A stretch of DNA of 64,000 nt. It comes from Alphaproteobacteria bacterium (GTDB lineage Bacteria; Pseudomonadota; Alphaproteobacteria; UBA828). This document shows, piece after piece, positions 49,825 to 64,000 of this stretch. The stretch spans positions 1,472,001 to 1,536,000 of the forward strand of contig OZ243972.1 of assembly GCA_965214705.1 (NCBI GenBank), given 5' to 3'. Below the pieces are notes generated by a model. It was not told where the DNA came from. It ran no database searches and worked only from the letters and a program-made list of their open reading frames with translations. The translations under genes and the position numbers were made by a program. The stretch's first letter is position 1. Each line of letters opens with the position of its first letter.

Positions 49825-52800
49825 TCATGCCGCAGGCCGGGTTACAGGCCGACGCGAGAGAGAACCCGATTGCGCCGGTCCGAACAGCGCATCGATATCG
49901 TCGTCCGTCAGCCCCAGCGGTCCCCGGCCCGTGCCTTCGAACAGCGCGTCCGCCAGGGCCTGCTTGCGCGCCTGCATCCGCTGGATCGCGGCCTCAACGG
50001 TATTCTCGGCAATCAGCCGGTGCACGAACACCGGCTTGTCCTGGCCGATCCGATGCGCCCTGTCCATGGCCTGCCGTTCCGTAGCCGGGTTCCACCAGGG
50101 ATCGTAGACGATCACCGTGTCGGCGGCCGTGAGGTTGAGGCCCGTGCCGCCGGCCTTCAGGCTCGCCAGGAACAGCGGGAGATCGCCGGACTGGAAGGCC
50201 GCGACCTGGGCGTCGCGGTCCTTCGTCGCCCCGTGCAGCATGGCGTAGCCCCAACCTTGCGCGGCGATGTCCCGCTCGATCAGCTTCAGCATTTCCACGA
50301 ACTGGGAGAAGACCAGCACCTTGCGCCCCTCGGCCACCAGCTCCTCCAGCAGCGCGAGAAGGCGCGCCCGCTTGGCGCTCGCGGTTACCTTGCGCGCGGC
50401 GTCGAGCTTCACCAGGCTTGGGTCGCAGCACACTTGGCGCAGCCTGAGCAGCGCCTCGAATATCGCCATCTGCGATGCCGCCAGGCCTTGCGCGGCGATC
50501 GCCTCACGGACCTGCCTGTCCATTGTCGTCCGGATGCCTTCGTAGAGCGCAGCCTGGGCGCCTTCCAGTGGGATCGTTTCGTCTATCACCGTCCTTTCCG
50601 GCAGCTCGGGGGCGACCTCTTCCTTGGTGCGACGCATCAGGAAGGGCTTCACCCGGGCCGCGAGCAGCCGTTGCCGGGCGAGGTCGCCGCGCTTCTCGAT
50701 GGGGGTCCGGAAGTCGGCGGTAAACTTCTTGCGGTTGCCGAGCAGGCCCGGCACGAGCCAGTCGTAGAGCGCCCACAGCTCCTGGAGGCTGTTCTCCAGC
50801 GGCGTCCCGGTCAGCGCCAGGCGCTGGCGCGCGCGAATCTCCCGGATGCGCTTCGAGACCGCCGAGGCAGGATTCTTCACCGCCTGCGCCTCGTCCAGCA
50901 CCGCGATCTCGAAGTCCCGGTCGAACAGCGCCTCGTGGTCCCGGTTGAGCAACGGATAGGTCGTGACGATGAGGTGGTGATCGGGGATTACCGGGAAATG
51001 CCGCCGCCGGTCGGGGCCGTGCAGCACCAACAGCTTCAGATCGGGCACGAAGCGCGCGGCCTCGCGGCGCCAGTTGCCGACCAGGCTGGTCGGCACCACC
51101 AGCAGGCTCGGCCGCTCCACTTTCTCCTCCAGATGCCGGTGCGCCAGCAGCGCCAGCGTCTGTACGGTCTTGCCGAGCCCCATGTCGTCGGCCAGTACCC
51201 CGCCGAAGCCGCTCTCCGAAAGCGCCTTCAGCCAGCCGTAGCCGGTGCGCTGGTAGGGACGCAGTTCGCCCCGAAGCGTGGCGGGTGGAGCCAGCTCCGG
51301 CGCCTCGGCAAGCGCCCGCAGCCGCGCTCCGAGATCGAGGATCTCCCGCCCGCCGGTCCAGGGCGCGCCGCAGCCTTCCAGCGCCTCCGCCAGCGCGAAC
51401 AGGCGGCCCGTATCGGCCCTGTGGAATTCCAGAAGCCCGTGCACCTCCAGGAACGCCTCCGCGAACCGCGCGAAGCGGGAACCGTCCAGGGCGACCCAAC
51501 TGCCGTCATCGAGCCGTGTGTGAAAAGTCCGGCCGGCCAGATGGCTCTCGATGTCGAAGCCTTCCTCCAGCCGGCCCCATTCGTCGACCGGTAGCTCCTC
51601 GACGATCTGGAGCACGATCGGTCCGATGTCGTACTTCCGGCCGTCCGCCTCCAGCGAGAGGCGAAGCGAGAACCAGTCCGTCTCGTCGGCTTCCAGCGAA
51701 GTCGAGAACGCGACCGGCCCTTCGTGCAGCCGGAACGGCCATGAGTCGTCGGCCTCGATGCGCCAGCCCCGGGCCCGCAGTCCCGGAACCGCCCGAACCG
51801 CAAACCCCAGGCCAGCCCCAGCCCCGTCATCCCGCCCGTCGCCGATCGGCGGGAACACCACTTCGGCGTCCCTCAGCTCCGGCGGCAGGTTCCGGTGGTA
51901 ACGCAGCAGCTCGCGGTTTTCCCAGGCATGGGGCGTTGCCGCTTCCCGCAGGATTTCCAGGAGCTCCTCCTCGCGCGCGCGGTCGCGCCGGATGACCGCA
52001 AAGCCCTCGCTCCCCTCCGCCGCCAAGTCATCTCCCCGTCCGGCGCGCACCCGGTTCCCGGCGCCCGGGTAGGCGATCTCGAGCCGGGCACACGGATAGA
52101 CCAGGACATCGCTGCCGCTCACCTCCACAATCCGCCTGCCGTCGTAGGCATGCCGCACCGCCCTGTGCTCGCAGCCGAAGAGCCCGAGCACCGGCTCCGG
52201 CATGACATCGCTGCGCTCCTCGACCCGGTGAAGCTGCGGCACGCGAGCGTGCTGGCCGGCACGGGACAGTCTCGCGGCGACCGCATCGATCGACCCGCGC
52301 TCGACCGGCGGTGCGGCCGCGAGCCAGGACGCCAGCCCCGCCGGCAGCCCGGTTTCAGCGACGCCGATCTCGCCGCTTTGCGGATCCATGAACATCGGCG
52401 TGGGGAAAGGCAGCAGCGTCAGCGGCGAACCCGCATCGTCATGCGCCGCGACCTGCTGCCGGCCCGCCTCGCCGACCTCCCAGGCGAGCACGCAGCGCCG
52501 CGGCTCCGACCACGAAAGCGCCATGCCCCGGATGTCGTCGGCCCGTGCGCGGCCGGTTTCGACGATGCCGCGAACCAGGCCGGTCAGCTCCTCGCCCTCG
52601 GGCCAGTCGTGGCGCCGGGGCCAGATGTCCCCCTGGTAATAGCCGAGCCTGCCGATCAGCGCGGCGTCTTCCGGGGTCAGGAACTTGCGCTGCGCGGACG
52701 CCGTCCCCTCGCGATACTCGCGGAAGTTCGTGCCGATCATGCCGTCCTTCTTCAGATAGGCCCGGTAGGGATCGATGCGCATGCCGCCCGTCGTATCGCG

Positions 52801-53250
52801 GTGGATGACGTAGAACAGATGGTTCCGGCCGGGCTCGGGCGGACCGCTTGGCCGGTCCTCCTGTCTTGCCGCAGCCGACCGGGGCCAGTCGTCCAGCCAG
52901 CGCCGCACGTCCCGGGACACGCCCCCGCGGGCGGAGACGGCAGCGCCGTCGACCGCTTCCGGTGAGACATGGCGGGCGGCGAGCAGGACGGCGGCCGTGT
53001 GCTTGCAGTTGTGGCCGACCGGGCAGGAGCAATGCCCCTCGACCGGAACCAGTGCTCCGTCCGCTCCGGACTCGTACTTGACCACGACTGCATAGGGTTT
53101 GGGCCGGCTACCCGAGACCTCCCCGAAGAGCCGGCCGTGCGGCCCGAAACTGACCGAACGCACCATGCCACGCTGGAAATAATCCAACCCTCGCAGGTAG
53201 GCGTCTTCCCCGACCACGTGCTCGATGTCGTACGTTTCGAAAGTCGCCAA
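49825..53250 (-). CDS. SWIM zinc finger - SNF2 family helicase
   Basis: CSCPVGHNCKH, LADDMGLGKT, DEAQ, TGTPLEN and QAMDRAHRIGQ motifs; probable TTG start at 53250. Confidence 0.92.
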   Translation of the reverse strand: MATFETYDIEHVVGEDAYLRGLDYFQRGMVRSVSFGPHGRLFGEVSGSRPKPYAVVVKYESGADGALVPVEGHCSCPVGHNCKHTAAVLLAARHVSPEAVDGAAVSARGGVSRDVRRWLDDWPRSAAARQEDRPSGPPEPGRNHLFYVIHRDTTGGMRIDPYRAYLKKDGMIGTNFREYREGTASAQRKFLTPEDAALIGRLGYYQGDIWPRRHDWPEGEELTGLVRGIVETGRARADDIRGMALSWSEPRRCVLAWEVGEAGRQQVAAHDDAGSPLTLLPFPTPMFMDPQSGEIGVAETGLPAGLASWLAAAPPVERGSIDAVAARLSRAGQHARVPQLHRVEERSDVMPEPVLGLFGCEHRAVRHAYDGRRIVEVSGSDVLVYPCARLEIAYPGAGNRVRAGRGDDLAAEGSEGFAVIRRDRAREEELLEILREAATPHAWENRELLRYHRNLPPELRDAEVVFPPIGDGRDDGAGAGLGFAVRAVPGLRARGWRIEADDSWPFRLHEGPVAFSTSLEADETDWFSLRLSLEADGRKYDIGPIVLQIVEELPVDEWGRLEEGFDIESHLAGRTFHTRLDDGSWVALDGSRFARFAEAFLEVHGLLEFHRADTGRLFALAEALEGCGAPWTGGREILDLGARLRALAEAPELAPPATLRGELRPYQRTGYGWLKALSESGFGGVLADDMGLGKTVQTLALLAHRHLEEKVERPSLLVVPTSLVGNWRREAARFVPDLKLLVLHGPDRRRHFPVIPDHHLIVTTYPLLNRDHEALFDRDFEIAVLDEAQAVKNPASAVSKRIREIRARQRLALTGTPLENSLQELWALYDWLVPGLLGNRKKFTADFRTPIEKRGDLARQRLLAARVKPFLMRRTKEEVAPELPERTVIDETIPLEGAQAALYEGIRTTMDRQVREAIAAQGLAASQMAIFEALLRLRQVCCDPSLVKLDAARKVTASAKRARLLALLEELVAEGRKVLVFSQFVEMLKLIERDIAAQGWGYAMLHGATKDRDAQVAAFQSGDLPLFLASLKAGGTGLNLTAADTVIVYDPWWNPATERQAMDRAHRIGQDKPVFVHRLIAENTVEAAIQRMQARKQALADALFEGTGRGPLGLTDDDIDALFGPAQSGSLSRRPVTRPAA

Positions 53251-53813
53251 GCCGGTCCGTCCGCCTTCCTTGCCCCGAATCCGCCGCCGGGACATCCGCT
53301 GTCCCGGGCGGGCGCGTCGACCGCCAACGCCCTGTCCGGGACTGCGACGGACCCTGCGCCGCCGGCTCCCGGCGCGCAAGCCCCGTGCCGTGCCGGGCAT
53401 GCTTCTCGAGCATTCCGGTTGCAGTCGGAAAGCAGTATCGATCCCGCGACCGGAGCGTCGAGCGACAGGTCGGCCGCGAGCGCCCTCGGCGCCTCTATCG
53501 GGAGCCGGCAGAAGCCGCATGCGGTGGCTCTTTTGTCTGCGCCTTTGTCGGCGCCGATCCAGTGTCACACGCTCTCGGCTCCCGTCACGCCAGACCATCC
53601 CGCCTGGAGCCCGTGGCGTGAGGACTTCGCCCAGGTCGCCGTCGTGGCCAGCGCCGGCCCCTCGACATCCCCCGTTCGCCGCGGCGCAGTCGCATCTCTT
53701 GGCCGGCTCCGGTCCCACGCCGGCCCGAGTGAGCGGATGGCGTCCGGGTTCTCGATCCGGACCGGGGCTCGAGGAGTCCCGCGCCGCGGCACCTCACCCT
53801 TCGGAGCCCGCCA

Positions 53814-54461
53814 ATGCACGATCCCGACACGATCTCCGCCGACTACACGCTGCGGCCCAGCGAGCTCGCCGCCACCCTCAAGATCCTTGTCGAAGCCAGA
53901 CAGCCAGTCATGGTCTGGGGTGGTCCCGGAATCGGCAAGAGCGAGGTCGCGCAGCAGGTCGCCGCCGAGGGCGGCCGCACCTACTATGACGTCCGTGCCC
54001 TGCTGCTTGACCCCGTCGACCTGCGTGGCATCCCCTGGCGCGACGACGACAACCGCACTCGCTGGGCTCCACCCGACTTCCTGCCGCCCACCGACAGCGC
54101 CGACCTCTACCTCGTCAACCTGGAGGAGCTTCCCTCCGGCGTGCCCATGGTGCAGGCGGCGCTCTTCCAGCTCGTCCGCGACCGCAAGTGCGGCGAGTAC
54201 GAGCTCCCCGAAGGCGCCTCGCTCATGGCCTGCGGCAACCGCGAGGGCGACCGCGGCGTCACCCACCGCATGCCGACCCCGCTGGCCTCGCGCTTCGTCC
54301 ATCTCGAGATCAAGGTCGACCCATCGGACTGGTTGGAATGGGGAGCCGCGAACGGGATCGCGCCAGAGACTCTCTTTTTCATCCAGCTCAGGCCGGAGCT
54401 CTTGAATGTGTTCGATCCACAGTCGCGCGAGGCGGCTTTCGCGTGTCCCCGCACGTGGGAG
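53814..54461 (+). pseudogene. MoxR-like AAA+ ATPase, N-terminal part
   Basis: GGPGIGKS, DPVDLRGIP, NLEEL, ACGN, LASRF and CPRTWE motifs; continues at 62289. Confidence 0.88.
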
Positions 54462-54487
54462 CTATGTTGAGCTCAACATAGCTCCCA
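54456..54487. repeat. 32-bp perfect palindrome
   Basis: tgggagctatgttgagctcaacatagctccca. Confidence 0.95.
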
Positions 54488-54707
54488 TTGAACTGAGCCG
54501 CGTTCCGCGGCGGGGCGCCTCGGCCGCCGGGTGCCCAGAGTGATCTCCTTGCCGCGCGTAAGTTGAGTGTGGCCGTTCGCTCCAGCGTCTGGGCGCAGGG
54601 TCGAATCCTGTTTCTCCCTCGTTGATCGATGGTCGTCGACCGCCAAGCCGGCGAGCAAGAGCATGGGCGTGTCTTCGTGACAGACCAAACCCAGAGGGAG
54701 ACGCCCC

Positions 54708-55562
54708 ATGACGGCACTTCGCCAGCGCATGATCAACGACATGACGGTTCGCGGCTTCGCCGAGAACACCAGGAAGTCCTACCTCAACTCGGTCTCCGGG
54801 CTCGCGGTTCACTACGGTCGCAGCCCCGAGCACATCTCAGCGGAGGAAGTCCAGGAGTACCTCATCTTTCTTCACGAAGAGCGGGGGCTGGCTTGGCAGA
54901 GCTGCAACAGCGCTCGCCAAGGGATCCGCTTCCTCTATCGCATCACGCTGGGCTTGCCCGAGCCGCACTTCTATCTGCCCTTCGCCAAGACGCCTTCCAC
55001 CCTGCCCGTACTGCTCAACCAAGACGAACTGGTGCGGCTGTTCAGCGTCACCATCAACCGCAAGCACCGCGCCTTGCTGATGACGGCCTATGCAGCGGGG
55101 CTTCGGGCGAGCGAGCTCGGCCGGTTGCAGATCAGCGATATCGACTCACAGCGGATGTGCCTGCGCGTCGATCAGGGCAAGGGCAACAAGGACCGCTACG
55201 TCCCGCTCTCGCCCCGGCTGCTCGACGAGCTGCGCGAGTACTGGCAGCGGGTACGGCCCGAGCACTGGCTGTTCCCCGGTCGGATTCCCGGCCGGCCGAT
55301 GACGCGCCATGGGCCAGCACACGTTTACGATCGAGCCAAGGACAAAGCCGGGATCGCCAAGCCCGGCGGGATCCACACGCTGCGCCATTGCTACGCCACC
55401 GGGCTCCTCGAGGCCGGCGTCGAGCTGCATGTCATCCAACGCCGCCTCGGGCACACCTCAATCCGCTCGACCATGCGCTACCTTCACCTTGCTCACGACA
55501 AGACGTCCGCCACGCCGTCGCCCCTGGACCTGCTGGAGTTTCCGCGTCCTGCCCAGGCCTGA
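54708..55562 (+). CDS. Tyrosine recombinase associated with the IS91-type transposase
   Basis: MTALRQRMINDM, GLRASE, GKGNKDR, HTLRH, LGH and T--Y motifs. Confidence 0.92.
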   Translation: MTALRQRMINDMTVRGFAENTRKSYLNSVSGLAVHYGRSPEHISAEEVQEYLIFLHEERGLAWQSCNSARQGIRFLYRITLGLPEPHFYLPFAKTPSTLPVLLNQDELVRLFSVTINRKHRALLMTAYAAGLRASELGRLQISDIDSQRMCLRVDQGKGNKDRYVPLSPRLLDELREYWQRVRPEHWLFPGRIPGRPMTRHGPAHVYDRAKDKAGIAKPGGIHTLRHCYATGLLEAGVELHVIQRRLGHTSIRSTMRYLHLAHDKTSATPSPLDLLEFPRPAQA

Positions 55563-55565
55563 CCG

Positions 55566-56786
55566 GTGGCTCATGTCGGCCACGCGGCGCCAGCCACACG
55601 GCCGGCGCTGGAGGTCGCGGACATCCTGCGCGAGCGCGGCGACGCCTATGGCGAGACACATCTGCTCTCGGCCCAGCAGCAGAGGGTCGTCGACGCGCTG
55701 GTGAACTGCCGCACCGCTGTGCTCGGCGGGTTCAAGGCAGAATGCGATCACTGCGGGGCGGTGACGATCCAGTACGCCTCGTGCCGGAACCGTCATTGCC
55801 CCAAGTGCCAGACCCTCTCGCAGACCAGGTGGGTTGAGCGTCAGTGCGCCGATCTGCTCGACATCGACTACTGGCATGTCGTGTTCACCCTGCCCCACGA
55901 GCTCAACCCCGTGGCCCAGGGCAATGCCGCGCTCATCTACAGGCTGCTCTTCAAGGCCGCCTCCCAGACCCTGCTCGAGTTCGGCCGCAATCCCCGCTGG
56001 CTCGGCGGCGAGCTCGGCATCACCATGGTGCTGCACACTTGGGGGCAGAATCTGGGACAGCACATCCATGTCCACTGTATCGTCACCGACGGCGGTCTGA
56101 GCCCGGACAGAGAGCGCTGGCTCACTCCCGCGCGCAAGGGCTTCCTGTTCCCCACGGTCGCGCTCTCGAAGGTCTTCCGCGGCAAGTATCTCGACTTCCT
56201 CGGCGCCGCGCACCGCGACGGCGAACTCCGGCTCAAGGTCGTCGGCGGTGGTGACGACAGCCGCGAGTTCGAGTGTCTGAAGACCGCGCTGCGGTCGAAC
56301 GACTGGGTGGTCTACACCAAGGCCCCGTTCGCCGGCGCCGGGCACGTTCTGGCCTATCTCGGGCGCTACACCCACAAGGCTGCCATCGCCAATCATCGCC
56401 TCGTCGACTTCGACGGCGAGCACGTTCGCTTCCGTTGGCGCGACTACGCTGACGGCAACAAGGTCAAGGTGATGCGTCTCGACGTCGACGAGTTCATCCG
56501 CCGCTTCCTCCTGCACGTCCTCCCGCGCGGCTTCACCCGCCTGCGCCACTACGGCTTGCTCGCCAATCGCTGCCGGGCTCGCAAGCTCGCCCGCTGCCGA
56601 GACCTGCTCGGCCAGCCTGCCCCTGAACCGCGGGAGCCGGAAACGACGCAGCAGATGATGCTGCGACTGACGGGGATCGACATCACCGTGTGCCGCCAGT
56701 GCGGCGAGGCAACGCTGCGGCAAACCGTCATTCTTGAGCCGCAGCCCCAAGCAGCCATGCGGGCGACGAATACCCGACCGCCGTGA
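55566..56786 (+). CDS. IS91-family rolling-circle transposase (zinc-binding + Y2 HUH)
   Basis: SCRNRHCPKC, HVVFTLP, LHTWG...HIHVH, YLGRY and RHYG motifs. Confidence 0.92.
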   Translation: MAHVGHAAPATRPALEVADILRERGDAYGETHLLSAQQQRVVDALVNCRTAVLGGFKAECDHCGAVTIQYASCRNRHCPKCQTLSQTRWVERQCADLLDIDYWHVVFTLPHELNPVAQGNAALIYRLLFKAASQTLLEFGRNPRWLGGELGITMVLHTWGQNLGQHIHVHCIVTDGGLSPDRERWLTPARKGFLFPTVALSKVFRGKYLDFLGAAHRDGELRLKVVGGGDDSREFECLKTALRSNDWVVYTKAPFAGAGHVLAYLGRYTHKAAIANHRLVDFDGEHVRFRWRDYADGNKVKVMRLDVDEFIRRFLLHVLPRGFTRLRHYGLLANRCRARKLARCRDLLGQPAPEPREPETTQQMMLRLTGIDITVCRQCGEATLRQTVILEPQPQAAMRATNTRPP

Positions 56787-57225
56787 CGATGCGTCAGAAC
56801 CGACAAGGTCCGACAACAGTCCCCCCGGCCGCCGCGCCGCGACCGCTCCTGCGCCCGCTTCGTGCTGCCCGGCGGCGAAACATCGTCGCGAGCCCCTGCA
56901 CAGCCGCGTCGCAACCTGATAAGTGGAGATTCAGAGTGCCGGCGCCGCCAGCGACACCAACAGGTTGCACCGCTTCGGCCTAATCGGCTCCCACCCAGCG
57001 GTTACTTTCCCCATAGCCCGGCACTACGGCCGTGCAGCGCGGCTCAGCTCAATGCCTGTATCGGTCCTGCTGCGCACGACCGATACAGGCCAATTCAATA
57101 TCGCGACCTCGCAGATATGGCGAGGACGGGGCGACAGCCCCCGGAGCGCCTCCTCTGGCGGCTGGATCGCTCAACATATTTCTGGCCTCCTCTCTTGGCT
57201 TCGCCAAGACAAGAGGAGAGCCATC

Positions 57226-58782
57226 ATGTCATCAACAGCAACGCGCCTGTCCGGGTCTCAGCTCACGCCTGAACCGCATCCCGAGGTATTCGACGAGTAT
57301 CGCGATCACCTGAGGGGCCTCGGATTCACGGAAACGAGCGTCCGGGACCACGGTCGTTTCGTGCGGCATTTCCTGATCTGGCTGGATGCGGACGGCATTG
57401 CACTGGATTCGATCGACGGCAATGTTGTGTCGAGCTTTTTCGGTCACGATTGTGGCTGCGATCTACCCTTCTCCAAGGCAATCCCGTCCGACTCCGGATA
57501 TTCGGTAGGGCCAGTCACTCGGTTTGTGCGCTTTCTTGAGGAGACCGGGCGAACCTTCCATCTCGAGGAACTGGACCAAAACCTCGGTCTACTGGATCAG
57601 TTTCTACAGCAGTCCCGAGAAAACGGATACAGCCACAGGGCACTTAACGTCTTTCGGTCGACAAGCCGCCACTTCATCGTCTGGCTGCACCATTTCCGTA
57701 TCCCGCTCGGGCAGCTGGACAGTTCTACTCTGGAGTGCTTTTTCGAACACGACTGCTATTGCGGTCTCCCGGGAATATACACCGGTTGGCGCAAGAAGGA
57801 ACGTGCCGTCTACCAACCGTCAGGCCTCACTCGGTTTATCGAGTTCTTGATTGACCGCGGCGAGGTCTCGGACGTCTTTCCATCGCCCACGGTAGCCGAC
57901 GACGGCCTTGACGAGTTTCGTTCCTGGCTCCGGCAAAACCGCAACATTGGTGAGAAGACCATACGGCACTACACCGGAACAATAACCTCTCTCCGCCCAG
58001 ACCTTGCAGAGAATCCCGATCAGTTTGACGTAACACAGATCCGGAACGCTCTAATGGACAAGCTCGAGAGCGCCTCTATCCGCCAAGCGAAACGAGTAAC
58101 GTCCACGCTGCGCATGTACCTGCGGTTTATGGCCTCCACAGGTCGCTGCTCCGCGAGACTGGTGGGTGCTGTTCCGACCGTCGCAGAATGGAGTCAAACC
58201 ACACTGCCTCGTTACTTGGCGCCTGAGATAATTGAACGGGCGATAGATTCTTGCGACCGAGCAACAGCGAAGGGGGTGCGCAACCGAGCAATAGTGCTCT
58301 TGCTCGCCAGGCTGGGCCTGCGTGCCGGAGAAGTTTCTCGCTTACGGTTGTGCGATATCGACTGGGAGAACGCACAGCTCCGGATCTGTGGAAAATCGGA
58401 CAAGGAAACGGCCATTCCACTTCCGCAGGAGGTTGGAGATGCGTTGCTTGACTATATCACCAATGCCCGACCTCGCGCAGATGAGGAAAGGGTCTTTCTG
58501 ACGGTGCTGGCACCGCACCGGCCGTTCAAGGAATCAAGCGGGATCACCTACGTCGCGCGCGTTGCGCTCGAACGCGCCGGTGTCGATCGCGCCAAGTTCC
58601 GGGGCGCACATGTCTTTCGACACAGCGCGGCTACCAATCTGCTGCGATCCGGCGCATCTCTCCGCTTCGTCGGCTCCTTGCTTCGGCACGAGTCCCTGAA
58701 GACCACCGCGCTATACGCAAAAGTCGATGCGCAGATGCTTCAAGAACTCGCGCAACCATGGATCGGGGGGAATACGAAATGA
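57226..58782 (+). CDS. RIT tyrosine recombinase A
   Basis: LPRYL, GLRAGE, HVFRHS, LRH and YAKVD...L.ELAQPW motifs; GAGGAG RBS. Confidence 0.9.
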   Translation: MSSTATRLSGSQLTPEPHPEVFDEYRDHLRGLGFTETSVRDHGRFVRHFLIWLDADGIALDSIDGNVVSSFFGHDCGCDLPFSKAIPSDSGYSVGPVTRFVRFLEETGRTFHLEELDQNLGLLDQFLQQSRENGYSHRALNVFRSTSRHFIVWLHHFRIPLGQLDSSTLECFFEHDCYCGLPGIYTGWRKKERAVYQPSGLTRFIEFLIDRGEVSDVFPSPTVADDGLDEFRSWLRQNRNIGEKTIRHYTGTITSLRPDLAENPDQFDVTQIRNALMDKLESASIRQAKRVTSTLRMYLRFMASTGRCSARLVGAVPTVAEWSQTTLPRYLAPEIIERAIDSCDRATAKGVRNRAIVLLLARLGLRAGEVSRLRLCDIDWENAQLRICGKSDKETAIPLPQEVGDALLDYITNARPRADEERVFLTVLAPHRPFKESSGITYVARVALERAGVDRAKFRGAHVFRHSAATNLLRSGASLRFVGSLLRHESLKTTALYAKVDAQMLQELAQPWIGGNTK

Positions 58783-59696
58783 CCCTCAAGACGCATGTGG
58801 AACGCTACATCGAACTCAAACGGCGCCTTGGCTACAAGTACGACGAAGCGGAAAAGCTGCTGCTCGACTACGCGAACTTTGCAGCGAAACGGAACGAGGA
58901 CCTCATGCGGGTCGGAACAATGGTCGATTGGGCGGCCAAAGCGAGTTCACGCAACAGGTCGTGCACCAAGTTGGACGTCGTTCGCATTTTTGCGACGTTC
59001 CTACACGGAGAAGACCAACGTCATGAGGTTCCGCCGCGCGATGTCTTCGGAAGGAAGACAAAGACAAGACCCCGACCGCATCTGCTGAGTGAAGGTGAGA
59101 TTCGGCTCGTGATGGACGCCGCGTTGACACTGCGGCCGTTGGGATCGATCACGCCGCACACTTGGCACTACATGATCGGGCTGATCGCCGTGACGGGTCT
59201 ACGGGCGTCGGAGGCCCTAAACCTGCGACTTGCCGATGTTGCTGCGTACAGCCTAACCGTGCAGCAGACAAAGTTCGGGAAGAGCCGGAAGGTTCCGCTG
59301 CATGAGGAGACTCGTGCAGCGCTCGACAACTATCTCGACATGAGAAAACGACTAGGAGGAGTGTACGATCATCTCTTCGTACGGGCGGACGGCAAGCCGC
59401 CGACGTATGCCGTCGCGCGCTATGTGTTCCTCAAACTTCTTCGTCAAACCGGTCTTCGCGCTGGTGGCAACGTGCCGGGCCCGAGCTTGCACAGCTTGCG
59501 CCATTCCTTCGCCGTGAGATCGCTCGAAAACATACCTGATGGCGCCGATCATAGCAGGCACATGCTTGCCCTTTCGGTCTCCCTTGGTCATGCCCAGGTG
59601 ACCCACACCTACTGGTACATGGAGGCAACTCCGACCCTGCTCAATCAGATCGCGGAAAAAACAGAAAGTGGATACATAGGGAGGATGCAAAAATGA
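58779..59696 (+). CDS. RIT tyrosine recombinase B
   Basis: Y...KRRLGYK, GLRASE, TKFGKSR, HSLRHSFAV, LGH and TYWY motifs; ATGA overlap. Confidence 0.92.
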   Translation: MTLKTHVERYIELKRRLGYKYDEAEKLLLDYANFAAKRNEDLMRVGTMVDWAAKASSRNRSCTKLDVVRIFATFLHGEDQRHEVPPRDVFGRKTKTRPRPHLLSEGEIRLVMDAALTLRPLGSITPHTWHYMIGLIAVTGLRASEALNLRLADVAAYSLTVQQTKFGKSRKVPLHEETRAALDNYLDMRKRLGGVYDHLFVRADGKPPTYAVARYVFLKLLRQTGLRAGGNVPGPSLHSLRHSFAVRSLENIPDGADHSRHMLALSVSLGHAQVTHTYWYMEATPTLLNQIAEKTESGYIGRMQK

Positions 59697-60688
59697 CAGC
59701 GCTGGCGACACATCTGAGTGAGTTTTTGCACCAGCACTTACCGAGAGACAGGCGGGCAAGCAAACATACAGCATCAAGCTATACCGCCACCTTCCGGCTA
59801 CTAAACAGGTACATTAAGGACCAACTCGACGAGGAGGCCTGCTTAGTAGAAATCGAGCAACTTAGCCCGCAAACTATCCTGGAGTTCCTTGACTTCCTCG
59901 AGCAAGAACGGGGAAGTGGAGTACGCACGCGCAATGCAAGGCTCGTCGCTATCAAGTCATTCTTCCGCTACCTGGAATACAAGGCTCCAGCCTGTCTGGA
60001 GCAATGCCGGCAGGTTCGTGCAATTCCCGAAAAGCGCGCTGACGAGAAGCTGATAGATTGGTTGACCGGTGAAGAAATGGAGGTGCTTCTCGCGGTGCCG
60101 GACGTCAATACAATCTCTGGGCTTCGCGATCGAGCGATGTTGCTACTTGCGTATACGGCTGGCCTGCGCGTCTCTGAGCTCGTGTCGCTAAGGCTCGATG
60201 ATCTCGATCAGCCTGATCTTGACACCGTGCATGTGATGGGAAAGGGACGTCGTGAGCGGATTCTTCCACTCTGGAAGATTACCAAAGAAGCCTTGGCCAG
60301 CTGGCTCGACGTCCGAGAGACCGGTAAAACCAATCACGTTTTTATCAATGCTCGTGGTCGCCCGATAACCCGCCACGGCTTCGCTCATCGCCTGGCGGTA
60401 CATACCAAGACTGCTCAGCAGCGGATGCCGTCGATAGGGAGAAAAAACGTAACTCCGCACTCGCTTCGGCACAGTTGCGCGGTCCTCATACTCGAGGAGA
60501 CGGACAATATCGGCTTTGTGTCGCTCTGGCTGGGTCATGCCAGCGCACAGAGCACAGCTATCTATCTGCGAGTGAATCCCAAGAAGGCGTTCAATGGGGT
60601 GGCAGGAGACTTGCCGTCAGAGATCAGGAAGGGCTCGTTCAAGGGCGCTCGCGATCAACTGGAGCAGATTCTCAAGCACGTACCCTGA
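59693..60688 (+). CDS. RIT tyrosine recombinase C
   Basis: RNARLVAIKSFFRY, GLRVSE, GKGRRER, PHSLRH and LWLGHA motifs; stop supplied by the IS end (original ...VPCP*). Confidence 0.92.
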   Translation: MTALATHLSEFLHQHLPRDRRASKHTASSYTATFRLLNRYIKDQLDEEACLVEIEQLSPQTILEFLDFLEQERGSGVRTRNARLVAIKSFFRYLEYKAPACLEQCRQVRAIPEKRADEKLIDWLTGEEMEVLLAVPDVNTISGLRDRAMLLLAYTAGLRVSELVSLRLDDLDQPDLDTVHVMGKGRRERILPLWKITKEALASWLDVRETGKTNHVFINARGRPITRHGFAHRLAVHTKTAQQRMPSIGRKNVTPHSLRHSCAVLILEETDNIGFVSLWLGHASAQSTAIYLRVNPKKAFNGVAGDLPSEIRKGSFKGARDQLEQILKHVP

Positions 60689-62188
60689 GCCACTTGCAAA
60701 ACTCCCAGGCGCGGTCTGCTTTTCCCGAGAGCCCGGCGTGAGGACATTGACGGTCGGAACGTAACATGAACTTCGGGACGAGCGGACGTCGCTGGCTGCC
60801 GCCGGGGCGCCGATTCGCCGCAAACCGATGCCCATGCGGGCGCATTTTGGACCCGCCGTCGCGATGCGGACATGGCTTTTTGCGCCTCCGCGGAGGGAGG
60901 CGTGCCGGCGTGACAGCGACGGAGGCGCCGCTCAGGCCAGGAGGCGCATCAGCTGGTCGACCGTCAGCACCAGGATGCCGAACATCAGGTGGCAATGAAC
61001 CTTGGCATGGCCGCACACGCGGACATGGCGGCCCCCGCAGTTGTCCTTCAGCCCACCGTTGATGCGCTCGATGTTCGAGCGCTCGTTGTAGCGCTCGTCC
61101 GCCGGGTGGCGGTGACCGACGCCTCTCTGCGCCCTGGCCTCGCGCGCCAGCTCCTCCTTGTACTCCTTGTCGCGAGGGTTGACGTCGATGATCGGGACGT
61201 GGCCCAGCAGGTAGCTGTGCCAGCCGATCTCGGGCGCGTCATAGGCTGAGTCCATGAGGTCGTACAGATTGGTGACGCGGTCGGCGGTCATACTCGCCAG
61301 CGGGATCGCGGCCTGGCTGTCGTGCAGCGAGGCGGACGTCAGGATGCAACTGATCGGAATGCCGCCATCGGCGGCGTCGATGTGCAGCTTGTAACCGATC
61401 CACGATGTGGTATGGCCCCTGGCGTTGCGCTTGGTGCCGACGTCGCAGGCTTTCGGCAGGTCGTCGAGCATCTGGGGCAAGCTCATCGTGAGCTGGCGTT
61501 TCACGCGGCGCTCCTCCTTGGGCCGCTCCTCGCCCTTGCGCGGGCGGCCGCGCTTGCGCTTCGGCTTCTCCGCCTTGGGCTTGGGCTGAGGCTTCTCGCG
61601 CGCCTCGATCGCCGTCGAGTCGCGCGAGACGTGCCCGACCAGATGGTCTCCGAGGGTCTGCTTGATCAGCGCCTCATGCACGCGAGCGGGCAACGCACTC
61701 TCGGAGAACTCCGCAAACGCCCGCGAAAACGTCGCCTCGCTCGGGATCTCTGCGGCATAGGTCCAGCCGCAGAGACGGCGTAGCGTCTTGTCGTTCTCAA
61801 GGCGCTCGATCAGGGCGCGCGTCGTGGGTACGTCGAACACCGCCTTGGCGATGAAGGCGCGGGCCAAGGCCGCCCGATCCTCGACCGGCCGACCGGGCAG
61901 GCCATGGAAATGGGGAAGGAAGCTCTCGACCCGCGCAAGCTCAAGCACGGTGACGAAGCGCCGGTACCTCTCGCCGAGCGGCCCGAGCTCCTCCTCAAGC
62001 CACGGGAAAAGATCCGCTTGAATGTGATGCCAGAATCCGGATAGTGTCTGTCCCAGCGACATGGGGCCGCCCTCTCCGTCGACGTTGTCCGAAACCCGAC
62101 AGGAACAGAGAGCGGTCCCGATTTCCAGGACAATCTGACCGCCACGGCGGCAAAATCCCGCTCAAATGCGGAATTTTGCAAGTGGCTC
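60687..62188 (-). mobile_element. IS5/IS1182-clan insertion sequence (complete), relative of 44115-45613
   Basis: 15-bp perfect IR gagccacttgcaaaa; 4-bp TSD ccct (60683-60686, 62189-62192). Confidence 0.9.
60932..62062 (-). CDS. DDE transposase (DUF772 + DDE_Tnp_1 type)
   Basis: Same motifs as 44335-45474. Confidence 0.9.
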   Translation of the reverse strand: MSLGQTLSGFWHHIQADLFPWLEEELGPLGERYRRFVTVLELARVESFLPHFHGLPGRPVEDRAALARAFIAKAVFDVPTTRALIERLENDKTLRRLCGWTYAAEIPSEATFSRAFAEFSESALPARVHEALIKQTLGDHLVGHVSRDSTAIEAREKPQPKPKAEKPKRKRGRPRKGEERPKEERRVKRQLTMSLPQMLDDLPKACDVGTKRNARGHTTSWIGYKLHIDAADGGIPISCILTSASLHDSQAAIPLASMTADRVTNLYDLMDSAYDAPEIGWHSYLLGHVPIIDVNPRDKEYKEELAREARAQRGVGHRHPADERYNERSNIERINGGLKDNCGGRHVRVCGHAKVHCHLMFGILVLTVDQLMRLLA

Positions 62189-62288
62189 CCCTGTCCCTGA
62201 ATATGTTGAGCGATTCAGCCTCCGGAGCAGGCGCTCCGGGGGCCGTCGCCTCGGCCTCGCCATATCTGCGAGGTCGCGATATTGGGAG

Positions 62289-62666
62289 TTCGTCTCAAAC
62301 GTGGTGAACCAGCGCAGCAGCCTCGACCTGGCCGCGGAGCGGGCGCTGTTCCGGGGCGCGGTCGGCGAGGCGGCGGCGGTCGAGTTCTCGGCCTTCCTCA
62401 AGGTCTGGCGCGAGCTGCCCCACCCGAGGGCCGTCATCGACGATCCCGAGAACGCGGACGTGCCCCAGAACGCGAGCGCGCTGATCGCCCTCTGCGGCTC
62501 GCTCTACCGCATGGCCGACGACGTCAACCTCGGCTCAATCGTCAGCTACGCCATGAGGCTGAGACGGGAGGTGGGCGAGTTCCTCGTGGGCTCGTGCGTC
62601 CGCCGCGAGCCCGCGCTCCAGCACACCGACGCCTTCATCCGCTGGGCCGCCGCACGGACCCAGTGA
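62289..62666 (+). pseudogene. MoxR-like AAA+ ATPase, C-terminal part
   Basis: FVSNVV...GAVGEAAAVEF.AF; joins 53814-54461 in frame to give 341 aa. Confidence 0.88.
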
Positions 62667-62694
62667 ACCCCAGCCCATCGGGAGAACACCGACC

Positions 62695-63591
62695 ATGAAC
62701 CTCACCCACGACGCCATGCTGGTCAGCTTGCGCATCACCGCCTGGTCCGGCCGGCTCTACGACCGCCAGGCCTCCAACCACGTCGCCGCCCAGCACGACG
62801 CCTCCGCCAGCGCCGGGCGCTACAACAAGCGCCTCTTGCCCAAGGCCGCCTTCGCCGCGCTCACCGCGACCGTGAGCGACGCACGCAGTTCACATTACGC
62901 CAACTCCCTTCCCTGGGACGACCAGGGCTCGCGGCTGCTCACCGTGGCCAACTACGAGGCCTACACCGAGCTCATGGACGGACTGCGCGAGCGCATGGTG
63001 CGCGAGCGCGCCCGCTTCATCGAGGACTACGACGACAACATCGACCGCGCCCGGCTCGACCTCGGCAAGCTCTTCCGCATCGGGGACTACCCGTCCAAGG
63101 AGGCGCTGCAGGGCAAGTTCGGGATCCGCTACCGCATCGTGCCGGTGCCGGACGCCGACCACTTCATGGCGAAGCTCGCGTCCCACGACACCGAGCGGGT
63201 CAAGCGCGGCATCGAGCGCGAGATCGAGGAGCGGCTGCACGACGCCGTCGCCGATCTCTACCGGCGGCTCGGTGAGGCAGTGGAGCGGGTCTCGGAGCGC
63301 CTCTCCGAGGACGGCGAGGGCAAGCCGCTCGTCTTCCGCGACACGATGATCTCCAACGTCCGCGACCTGGTCGACGTCGTGCCCCGCCTCAACATTTTCG
63401 GGGACGACCGGCTCGCCAGCCTCTGCCAGGAGGTGAAGGACAGGATCGCCCACGCCGATCCGGCGACGCTGCGCCCGTCGCCCAACTTCAACCCGAACGT
63501 GCGGCACCAGGTGAAGCGCGACGCCGATGCGCTGGCGGAGAAGTTCGCGGGGTACTTCGGCACCCCGGCCGTCGACCGGGAGGCCGCGTGA
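62695..63591 (+). CDS. DUF3150-like phage/ICE protein
   Basis: AMLVSLRI..WSGR..D, G.YNKRLL, SLPW.D.GSRLL, YPS and LNI..D motifs; GGAG RBS. Confidence 0.6.
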   Translation: MNLTHDAMLVSLRITAWSGRLYDRQASNHVAAQHDASASAGRYNKRLLPKAAFAALTATVSDARSSHYANSLPWDDQGSRLLTVANYEAYTELMDGLRERMVRERARFIEDYDDNIDRARLDLGKLFRIGDYPSKEALQGKFGIRYRIVPVPDADHFMAKLASHDTERVKRGIEREIEERLHDAVADLYRRLGEAVERVSERLSEDGEGKPLVFRDTMISNVRDLVDVVPRLNIFGDDRLASLCQEVKDRIAHADPATLRPSPNFNPNVRHQVKRDADALAEKFAGYFGTPAVDREAA

Positions 63592-64000
63592 TGGCCTCCC
63601 GCGCCCGCCGGGAGTCGGCCAGCCGCGTCAGCGACTGCATCACCGCGCTGCTCCGTGACCAGCCGTTCTTCGGCAGCCTCGCGCTTCGCCTGCCGATCCG
63701 CCCCGACGCGGCGCGCGAGACCCTGGCCAGCGACGGCCGCGAGATCCGCTATTCCCCCGAGTGGGTCGCGCAGACCGATGCCGATCTCATCAAGACCGCG
63801 ATCGGGCGTGTGGTGCTGGCCTGCGCGCTCAAGCACCACACGCGCCGGGGCGTGCGCGAGCCCGGTCGCTGGCAGCACGCCTCGCAGCTCGTCACCCACG
63901 GGCTCTTGCGCGACGCGGGCTTCAAGCTTCCGCCGGACGCCGAAGCCTGGGACGGGATCAGCGTAGAGCAGGCCTACGATCGGCTGCCCGAGCCGCAGGA
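63591..64000 (+). CDS. DUF2201 N-terminal (metallopeptidase-like; usually followed by VWA) protein, partial
   Basis: QPFFGSLALRL, TLASDG..IRY.PEW, LKHHTRR and S.EQ.YD.L motifs; runs off the window; not in the ORF track. Confidence 0.8.
   Translation, partial: MASRARRESASRVSDCITALLRDQPFFGSLALRLPIRPDAARETLASDGREIRYSPEWVAQTDADLIKTAIGRVVLACALKHHTRRGVREPGRWQHASQLVTHGLLRDAGFKLPPDAEAWDGISVEQAYDRLPEPQ

Follow-up and report, generated by a model that had tools for sequence, protein, structure and literature searches.

The RIT Locus and Its Target Gene

The stretch of DNA analysed here (the window) comprises 64,000 nucleotides of contig OZ243972.1, from an alphaproteobacterium of the UBA828 lineage. 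It contains a nest of three elements inside a gene for a MoxR-type AAA ATPase: a recombinase in trio (RIT) element and two further elements inserted in it. The 5′ part of the ATPase gene (codons 1–216, 53814–54461) and its 3′ part (codons 217–341, 62289–62666), both on the forward strand, align end to end on residues 1–216 and 217–341 of the intact homologue P0001, with 97% and 96% identity, respectively. Among the best 120 homologues, 97 have a length of 341 residues, and some are named MoxR family ATPase; searches of Pfam and NCBIfam gave no name for either half. The ATPase end as truncated by the RIT is matched exactly by two other database proteins.

The RIT is built of three adjacent tyrosine recombinase genes on the forward strand: ritA (57226–58782; 518 residues with a long N-terminal part, the start being read from the sequence), ritB (58779–59696; 305 residues) and ritC (59693–60688; 331 residues). 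Each gene overlaps the next by 4 bp (58779–58782 and 59693–59696), within the 4–8 bp given for RITs. All three products match PF00589, that of ritA also SAM-like domains, and motifs apparently of the catalytic R-H-x-x-R-H-Y type are recognizable by eye in the three translations. The proteins score best with Xer models and far below the integron-integrase cut-off. Two inverted repeats (IRs) of 83 bp, both forward, enclose the genes, one on the ritA side (57098–57180) and one on the ritC side (62200–62282); the inserts aside, no further gene is found between them. Uninterrupted copies measure 3679 bp from IR to IR and have a RitC two residues longer than that of the window. With described RITs, the element shares a set of three tyrosine recombinase genes that overlap, apparently in the order A-B-C, as well as a length of ~3.7 kb (near the 3.5 kb expected of RITs) and terminal IRs, and it is a real, ordinary member of this family. 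Its genes have a GC content of 57%, compared with 64% for the window.

One feature is situated outside the IRs. A perfect palindrome of 32 bp (54456–54487), twice the size of the next longest in the window (16 bp), follows the ATPase 5′ part and can be divided into 6 + 20 + 6 bp. The first hexamer, T1 (54456–54461, forward), forms the last two codons of the truncated ATPase; the central 20 bp (54462–54481) are a perfect palindrome of their own, P; and the second hexamer, T2 (54482–54487), is inverted. A third one, T3 (62283–62288, forward), identical to T1 in this copy, is found at the far end. As counted in an earlier note on this DNA, a 10-mer of P occurs exactly four times in the 64 kb, at 54463, 54471 (reverse complement), 57169 (reverse complement) and 62202; the last two are P-like sites in the IRs (57169–57178 and 62202–62211). 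No Rfam match was obtained for 53000–64000.

Between T2 and the ritA-side IR lies a 2610-bp element, Int-IS91 (54488–57097, forward). When it is removed in silico, as the earlier note had done, 54485–54487 join 57096–57098 (with an ambiguity of 2 bp), and the left end becomes the mirror image of the right one. Such an end exists in nature: locus L004 carries it at the same site and in the same orientation. The second insert, an insertion sequence (IS) of the DDE type (60687–62188, reverse strand), was absent from that earlier account.

Close Copies of the Window Element

A single scan of genome contigs with RitC gave six close loci (L001–L006), matching at 93–99%. Neither insert is present in any of them (L002–L006 for Int-IS91 and L001–L006 for the DDE-type IS). 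L001 begins at the element edge and is uninformative on P; the five copies having both ends all possess P without Int-IS91, and P is hence part of the RIT and not of Int-IS91. An assembly artefact is ruled out as well, as the 32-bp palindrome recurs in these five copies from two other assemblies and P in many finished plasmids. Nor is P host target sequence: it is absent from two intact target homologues and remains identical across unlike flanks.

In L003, L005 and L006, the genes are reversed relative to the window, and P is still next to the 5′ part of the ATPase gene. The element of L002 sits in an unrelated gene, on the antisense strand, where the DNA is similar to that of the ATPase target; targeting is hence by DNA sequence. 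The 6-bp cores differ between the close copies. At three sites of one assembly (L002–L004), the first 3300 bp compared are identical, and such identical copies within one genome are a trait of RITs. The plasmid set described below yielded no close relative of the window RIT at the DNA level; the central 16 bp of P recur in the RIT of a sphingomonad, which has a RitC of 52% identity.

General Anatomy of RIT Ends

For a broader comparison, 30 plasmid stretches were fetched, drawn from 1873 records matching RitC and from follow-up searches. Preference was given to best hits and to pairs from one strain, so that the stretches are alphaproteobacterial, except for one from Paraburkholderia. Of the 43 ritC-like genes in the stored loci, 36 are found in the order host 5′ side, T1, P, inverted T2, IR, genes, IR, T3, host 3′ side, with hexamers of 6 bp and a P of 20 bp. 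Of the other seven, one lies at a contig edge, two run out of the stretch before their far end is reached (L029 completes one of these), the ends of two are destroyed, and in two an Int-IS91 element separates P from the IR. None of the 43 belongs to an element with two intact ends and without P. The palindrome is located beside the ritC end in 19 and beside the ritA end in 17 of the 36 elements. The unit that moves would be P + T2 + IR-ritABC-IR, with the palindrome and one hexamer outside the IR.

P is perfect in 29 of the 36 elements and varies in sequence between families. In two of the three P types that are imperfect, only the central loop bases deviate, and one variant carries a symmetric double change. 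Over the 11 P types measured, the IRs extend over 35–122 bp; the long IRs of the window, taken for unusual by the earlier note, fall well within this range. A P-like half site is seen 81–84 bp inside both ends in 28 of the 36 elements and inside at least one end in 35, with 0–4 mismatches per 10 bases, some of the matches being weak (3–4 mismatches). The 10-mers may, as the earlier note had it, be recombinase binding sites, with which this pattern is consistent. The perfect 32-bp symmetry of the window copy is neither a requirement nor the product of a symmetrising step, since T1 and T2 differ in most other RITs.

A palindrome near RIT ends is mentioned in PMC3414803, which describes an IR of 28-9 bp with an overlapping palindrome, unlike the usual sites. 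The two Dinoroseobacter shibae copies treated there are very probably our L016 and L017. In D. shibae, the repeated end extends ~150 bp and takes in the start of ritA.

In some RITs, a cargo gene follows ritC ahead of the IR: a 1.3-kb gene in L007, L008, L018, L021, L022 and L025 and a DEAD/DEAH helicase in L016 and L017. Further long palindromes occur near, and outside, RIT ends (L007, 1062–1097, 36 bp and perfect; L011, 9708–9740, 33 bp with a 3-base loop). A RIT in L010 (2770–8802) interrupts the ritB of a second RIT; it lies on the antisense strand, and the codons hit are those for the catalytic H-x-x-R motif. The gene of a strawberry-notch helicase/methylase is hit by two RIT families, ~300–400 bp apart, each at its own fixed site (L009, L020, L025, L026, L032, L034 and L035). 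In the intact target gene at L028 (~670–700), the sequence just 5′ of the hexamer matches the IR end of a sphingomonad RIT, with 12 bases exact and 7 of 10 residues when translated. Coding sequence of a target may have been the origin of the RIT IR end, or this match may be a footprint.

Origin of the Hexamers

The origin of the hexamers was read from 13 pairs of insertions whose flanks differ at no more than 4 of 48 bases, one duplicate pair being left out. T3 is equal in 11 of these pairs, T1 in only 2 and T2 in none. In addition, an intact homologue of the L008 target carries T3-type codons. At the off-target site of L002, 120 homologues of the host gene were examined; the residue encoded by T3 is that of 112 of the 114 scorable ones, and the T1 residue occurs in none. 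T1 and T2 match, in turn, T3 values of other insertions. As T3 follows the flanks and the other two do not, the comparison indicates that T3 is the target's own hexamer and that T1 and T2 are relics of earlier targets, carried by the element. By the same rule, the T1 of the window would have been brought in by the element. What the earlier note took for a direct repeat is not fixed; the hexamers are variable coupling sequences.

The model drawn from that note is an ordinary excision of both strands across the direct repeat, yielding a duplex circle, perhaps a cruciform, and a restored gene, with integration via either core. The geometry fits, both orientations occur, and joining across the 6-bp repeat does give a 341-codon frame through T-W-E-F-V, as T1 equals T3 in this copy. 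However, a two-strand exchange predicts that T1 is target-derived about as often as T3, contrary to the counts above: the inheritance of the hexamers is strand-biased. It also predicts that about half of the hops keep their orientation, which the pairs described below do not. Such a mechanism is considered highly unlikely.

The Shift-and-Flip Rule

Twelve same-genome pairs of near-identical elements were compared, of which seven are informative: L017>L016 (D. shibae), L032>L020 (S. xenophagum, two RITs), L029>L026 (Sphingobium CAP-1), L031>L030 (R. wittichii) and L034>L035 (S. amiense, two RITs). In all seven, the new T1 equals the old T2, the new T2 equals the old T3, and the orientation is reversed; no other rule fits. 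Within each pair, the elements are identical, 4 to 17 of the 48 flank bases differ, and the hexamers have moved on by one slot. The direction of the arrows follows from T3 being native, as the same relation read backwards would otherwise fit. Between strains, a shift with a flip was seen in 2 of 150 pairs, and if both cores were equal, seven flips against no same-orientation reuse would have p = 0.008. For CAP-1, the T2 of the donor L029 was predicted from partial L009/L026 data before its sequence was fetched, and it matched. Asymmetric variants of P reverse together with the genes.

Two other pairs were only counted as background: L024>L023, which fits the shift, although the elements differ at 527 positions, and L021>L008, a cross-strain case that fits a second rule too. 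The B. barranii pair is a duplicate, and a 50-kb fetch from B. elkanii gave no second RIT copy. Donors persist beside the new copies in same-genome pairs; as a pair is visible only if its donor persists, this does not decide on empty sites.

Events other than hops could be imagined, namely inversion in place between the IRs, or homologous recombination or gene conversion between paralogous targets. The targets are indeed paralogous genes on several plasmids, the long IRs could support inversion, and L014/L033 shows that duplicates occur. Inversion between the IRs would, however, leave all three hexamers in place, and neither process agrees with seven pairs of identical elements with unlike flanks and hexamers shifted by one slot, nor with L002 in an unrelated gene on the antisense strand. 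This explanation is even less probable than a two-strand excision. The one-strand shift-and-flip rule, taken by itself, can be proposed with considerable confidence from these comparisons.

Proposed Mechanism of Movement

With tyrosine recombinases, the cut on each strand falls at the spacer's 5′ edge. The rule brings T3 next to P, which implies exchange on the bottom strand only; it also brings T2 to the new host 5′ side with the target hexamer at the far end, which implies exchange on the top strand of the target only. The incoming strand is then the circularised strand, and a single-stranded circle accounts for all of this. The RIT would be a target-specific transposon in which one DNA strand is exchanged at each step.

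In the first step, the strand opposite the target sense strand would be cut at the 5′ edges of T1 and T3, P would be joined to T3, and a single-strand circle with the junction IR-T2-P-T3-IR would be released. The IRs of this circle would pair, as would T2 and T3, with mismatches; P would form the hairpin tip, and the junction would become one recombination site. Next, after a cut 5′ of T2, which would be the crossover core in the following integration, the circle strand would be exchanged with a target's top strand, itself cut 5′ of the target hexamer. The resulting structure would be resolved by replication, as for integron attC x attI. The outcome would be the one seen in the genomes: the old T2 is the new T1, the old T3 the new T2 and the target hexamer the new T3, with the genes and P reversed. 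In the folded circle, only the bond 5′ of T2 would be in cutting position, which would force the flip. P would always stay on the same side of the target, and the element would act as a two-slot record of its previous targets.

Both the junction IR-hexamer-P-hexamer-IR and an off-centre crossover at a 6-bp core had been put forward in the earlier note, and they agree with the hexamer patterns of related RITs. The 89-bp arms it described are present, even if not perfect (92% complementary over 85 nt). Protelomerase-like hairpin ends were rejected by reasoning, as T2 would pair with itself and T3 would not be brought in. When folded in silico, the predicted junctions of all 11 P types form one hairpin, with the mismatches in the hexamer. 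That of L004 folds at about −118 kcal/mol, compared with −40 ± 4 for shuffles.

A number of observations weigh against the folded circle or limit the rule behind it. Folding in silico is common to all inverted repeats, and the energies are therefore no evidence of single-stranded forms. The SE elements (strand-biased circularizing integrative elements), with the same one-strand carry-over of 6 bp, nevertheless have double-stranded circles (PMC10214605). Host 3′ flanks show no similarity to P (1.9 of 10 matches vs. 2.4 at random), and host 5′ flanks are only modestly like the IR end (8.4 of 24 vs. 5.9 ± 2.2), so that recognition of the T3 side is not accounted for. The RITs at L029 and L026 moved with an imperfect P. 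Five of the 12 same-genome pairs are uninformative or do not fit one hop: the three pairs of L002, L003 and L004 are compatible, their hexamers being almost all alike; L005 and L006, with 11 differences and the same orientation, fit no one-step rule; and L014 and L033 have the same flanks and are duplicates. Six of the seven informative pairs are from sphingomonads; neither the window's own family nor any RIT with short IRs is represented among the seven. Finally, two of the pairs with near-identical flanks differ at T3.

The same shift-and-flip data are accounted for by a copy-out to a nicked double-stranded circle, similar to that proposed for SE/Tn554. P would then consist of two back-to-back binding half-sites, one for circularisation and one for integration, and a nick or an attached recombinase at the fresh T3 junction would block that core, so that T2 is used and the element flips. 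The circles of SE elements, double-stranded and open-circular with one flank hexamer (PMC10214605), offer a precedent, and the movement of RITs with an imperfect P is in line with it. However, an extra asymmetry is needed to forbid the second core. By itself, a nicked duplex accounts neither for the near-identity of the IRs over 35–122 bp, nor for the tolerated asymmetry at the two central bases of P, nor for RIT circles being unresolved from paired reads (PMC5737581). We regard this explanation, the main rival, as possible but less likely than the folded circle. For the folded single-strand circle as the RIT intermediate, the sequence evidence is close to balanced and leans slightly in its favour.

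Elements Inserted in the RIT

Int-IS91 encodes a tyrosine recombinase (54708–55562) and an IS91 transposase (55566–56786) and has imperfect terminal IRs and a hairpin at 57055–57089. Its integrase scores highest with the integron-integrase model, yet below the cut-off of this model. Three such elements were found: the one of the window, one in Mesorhizobium (L010, 6150–8776) and one in Bradyrhizobium (L036, 10272–12905). They are 2610–2634 bp long, encode proteins 44–48% identical and each end in a hairpin-forming stretch. All three are placed exactly between T2 and the IR, in three unrelated RITs, and this position is the bond predicted to be cut at RIT integration. In 13 of 24 further plasmid records that match the end of the L036 element, the match continues for 13 or more bases into that part of the query which is RIT IR, which is only suggestive of more elements at such sites. 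Int-IS91 elements may form a group of RIT-targeting parasites; a literature search by element names gave no match for them. As the insert splits the predicted integration site, the window copy is probably crippled in cis.

The DDE-type IS has a transposase gene at 60932–62062, IRs of 15 bp and a 4-bp duplication (60683–60686 and 62189–62192). It clips the last two codons of ritC; with the IS1182 and IS5 models, it does not reach the cut-offs.

Around the nest, the ATPase gene adjoins a SWIM-SNF2 helicase gene (neighbourhood 49825–53718). Downstream of it (62695–64000), an unnamed gene of 298 codons and a DUF2201 metallopeptidase gene are found.

Comparison with Known Systems

Self-folding single-strand circles, a forced flip, a readable two-step target history and Int-IS91 parasitism at the bond cut by the RIT form, taken together, a tentative proposal to which we would give slightly less than an even chance. 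Different parts of it have counterparts in other systems. Tn916-type elements have variable 6-bp coupling sequences derived from the flanks, as RITs do. Unlike RITs, Tn916 excises both strands, with a heteroduplex joint and an empty site, and has neither a palindrome nor a second stored hexamer. CTXphi-type integration resembles the proposed exchange of one strand on a folded site.

In integrons, attC recombines as a folded single-strand site with replicative resolution (PMC3458562), and attC x attI shares with the proposed RIT reaction the folded site, the exchange of one strand and the way of resolution. However, attC is one chromosomal site, whereas the folded site of a RIT would exist only once its ends are joined. 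The RIT, unlike integron cassettes, encodes its own three recombinases, and neither an IntI integrase nor an attC array is part of it.

The SE/Tn554 elements are close in another respect: they share with RITs tyrosine recombinases, target specificity, the exchange of one strand and the carrying on of 6 bp derived from the donor's target (PMC10214605). In RITs, this carry-over is seen in all seven informative pairs of related elements, the window's own family being uninformative. SE elements carry one hexamer, compared with two in RITs, and no terminal palindrome or forced flip is described for them in the excerpts of PMC10214605. They need Tfp/Srap or TnpC accessory proteins and have two recombinases, whereas RITs have three recombinases and no accessory gene. 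Their circles are double-stranded (PMC10214605), and the RIT circle is proposed to be single-stranded. SE elements, the closest strand-biased system, leave no empty site, according to the same source. The repair of the ATPase gene by excision, expected by the earlier note, is correct as a sum and no more than a possibility as an event; any empty site would be seamless in the window copy, since T1 equals T3.

The same note had RITs as reported to circularise, which is too strong. A mobilome study found raised exonuclease-resistant coverage and could not determine circles; hairpin intermediates were suggested from unresolved reads (PMC5737581). Movement, target specificity, empty site and mode are all listed as untested for RITs as of 2023 (PMC10214605, Table 1). 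None of the excerpts of PMC3414803, PMC5737581 and PMC10214605 assigns the palindrome a role or mentions 6-bp coupling cores, a strand bias or a flip rule. Literature searches, with Ricker et al. 2013 outside their scope, turned up no account of RITs that describes coupling hexamers, a bias between strands or a flip. The movement rule is precise and apparently undescribed before. The study by Ricker and colleagues is said to report target genes and palindromes near RIT ends, and the anatomy may be partly in print.

RITs are widespread, and their movement had not been reproduced as of 2023 (PMC10214605). The exact limits of the element are now gained: a construct made from IR to IR would lack the palindrome and one hexamer. 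Exact cut sites and the strand that takes part are predicted as well, and so, sharply, is the result of every hop, which makes the mechanism directly testable. An integrator that is sequence-specific, tolerates mismatches and has a compact end could serve as a tool. The order in which RITs spread between plasmids can be read from their sequence. If the proposed mechanism is true, these elements flip at every hop, and a two-step history of their earlier targets would be legible in genomes.

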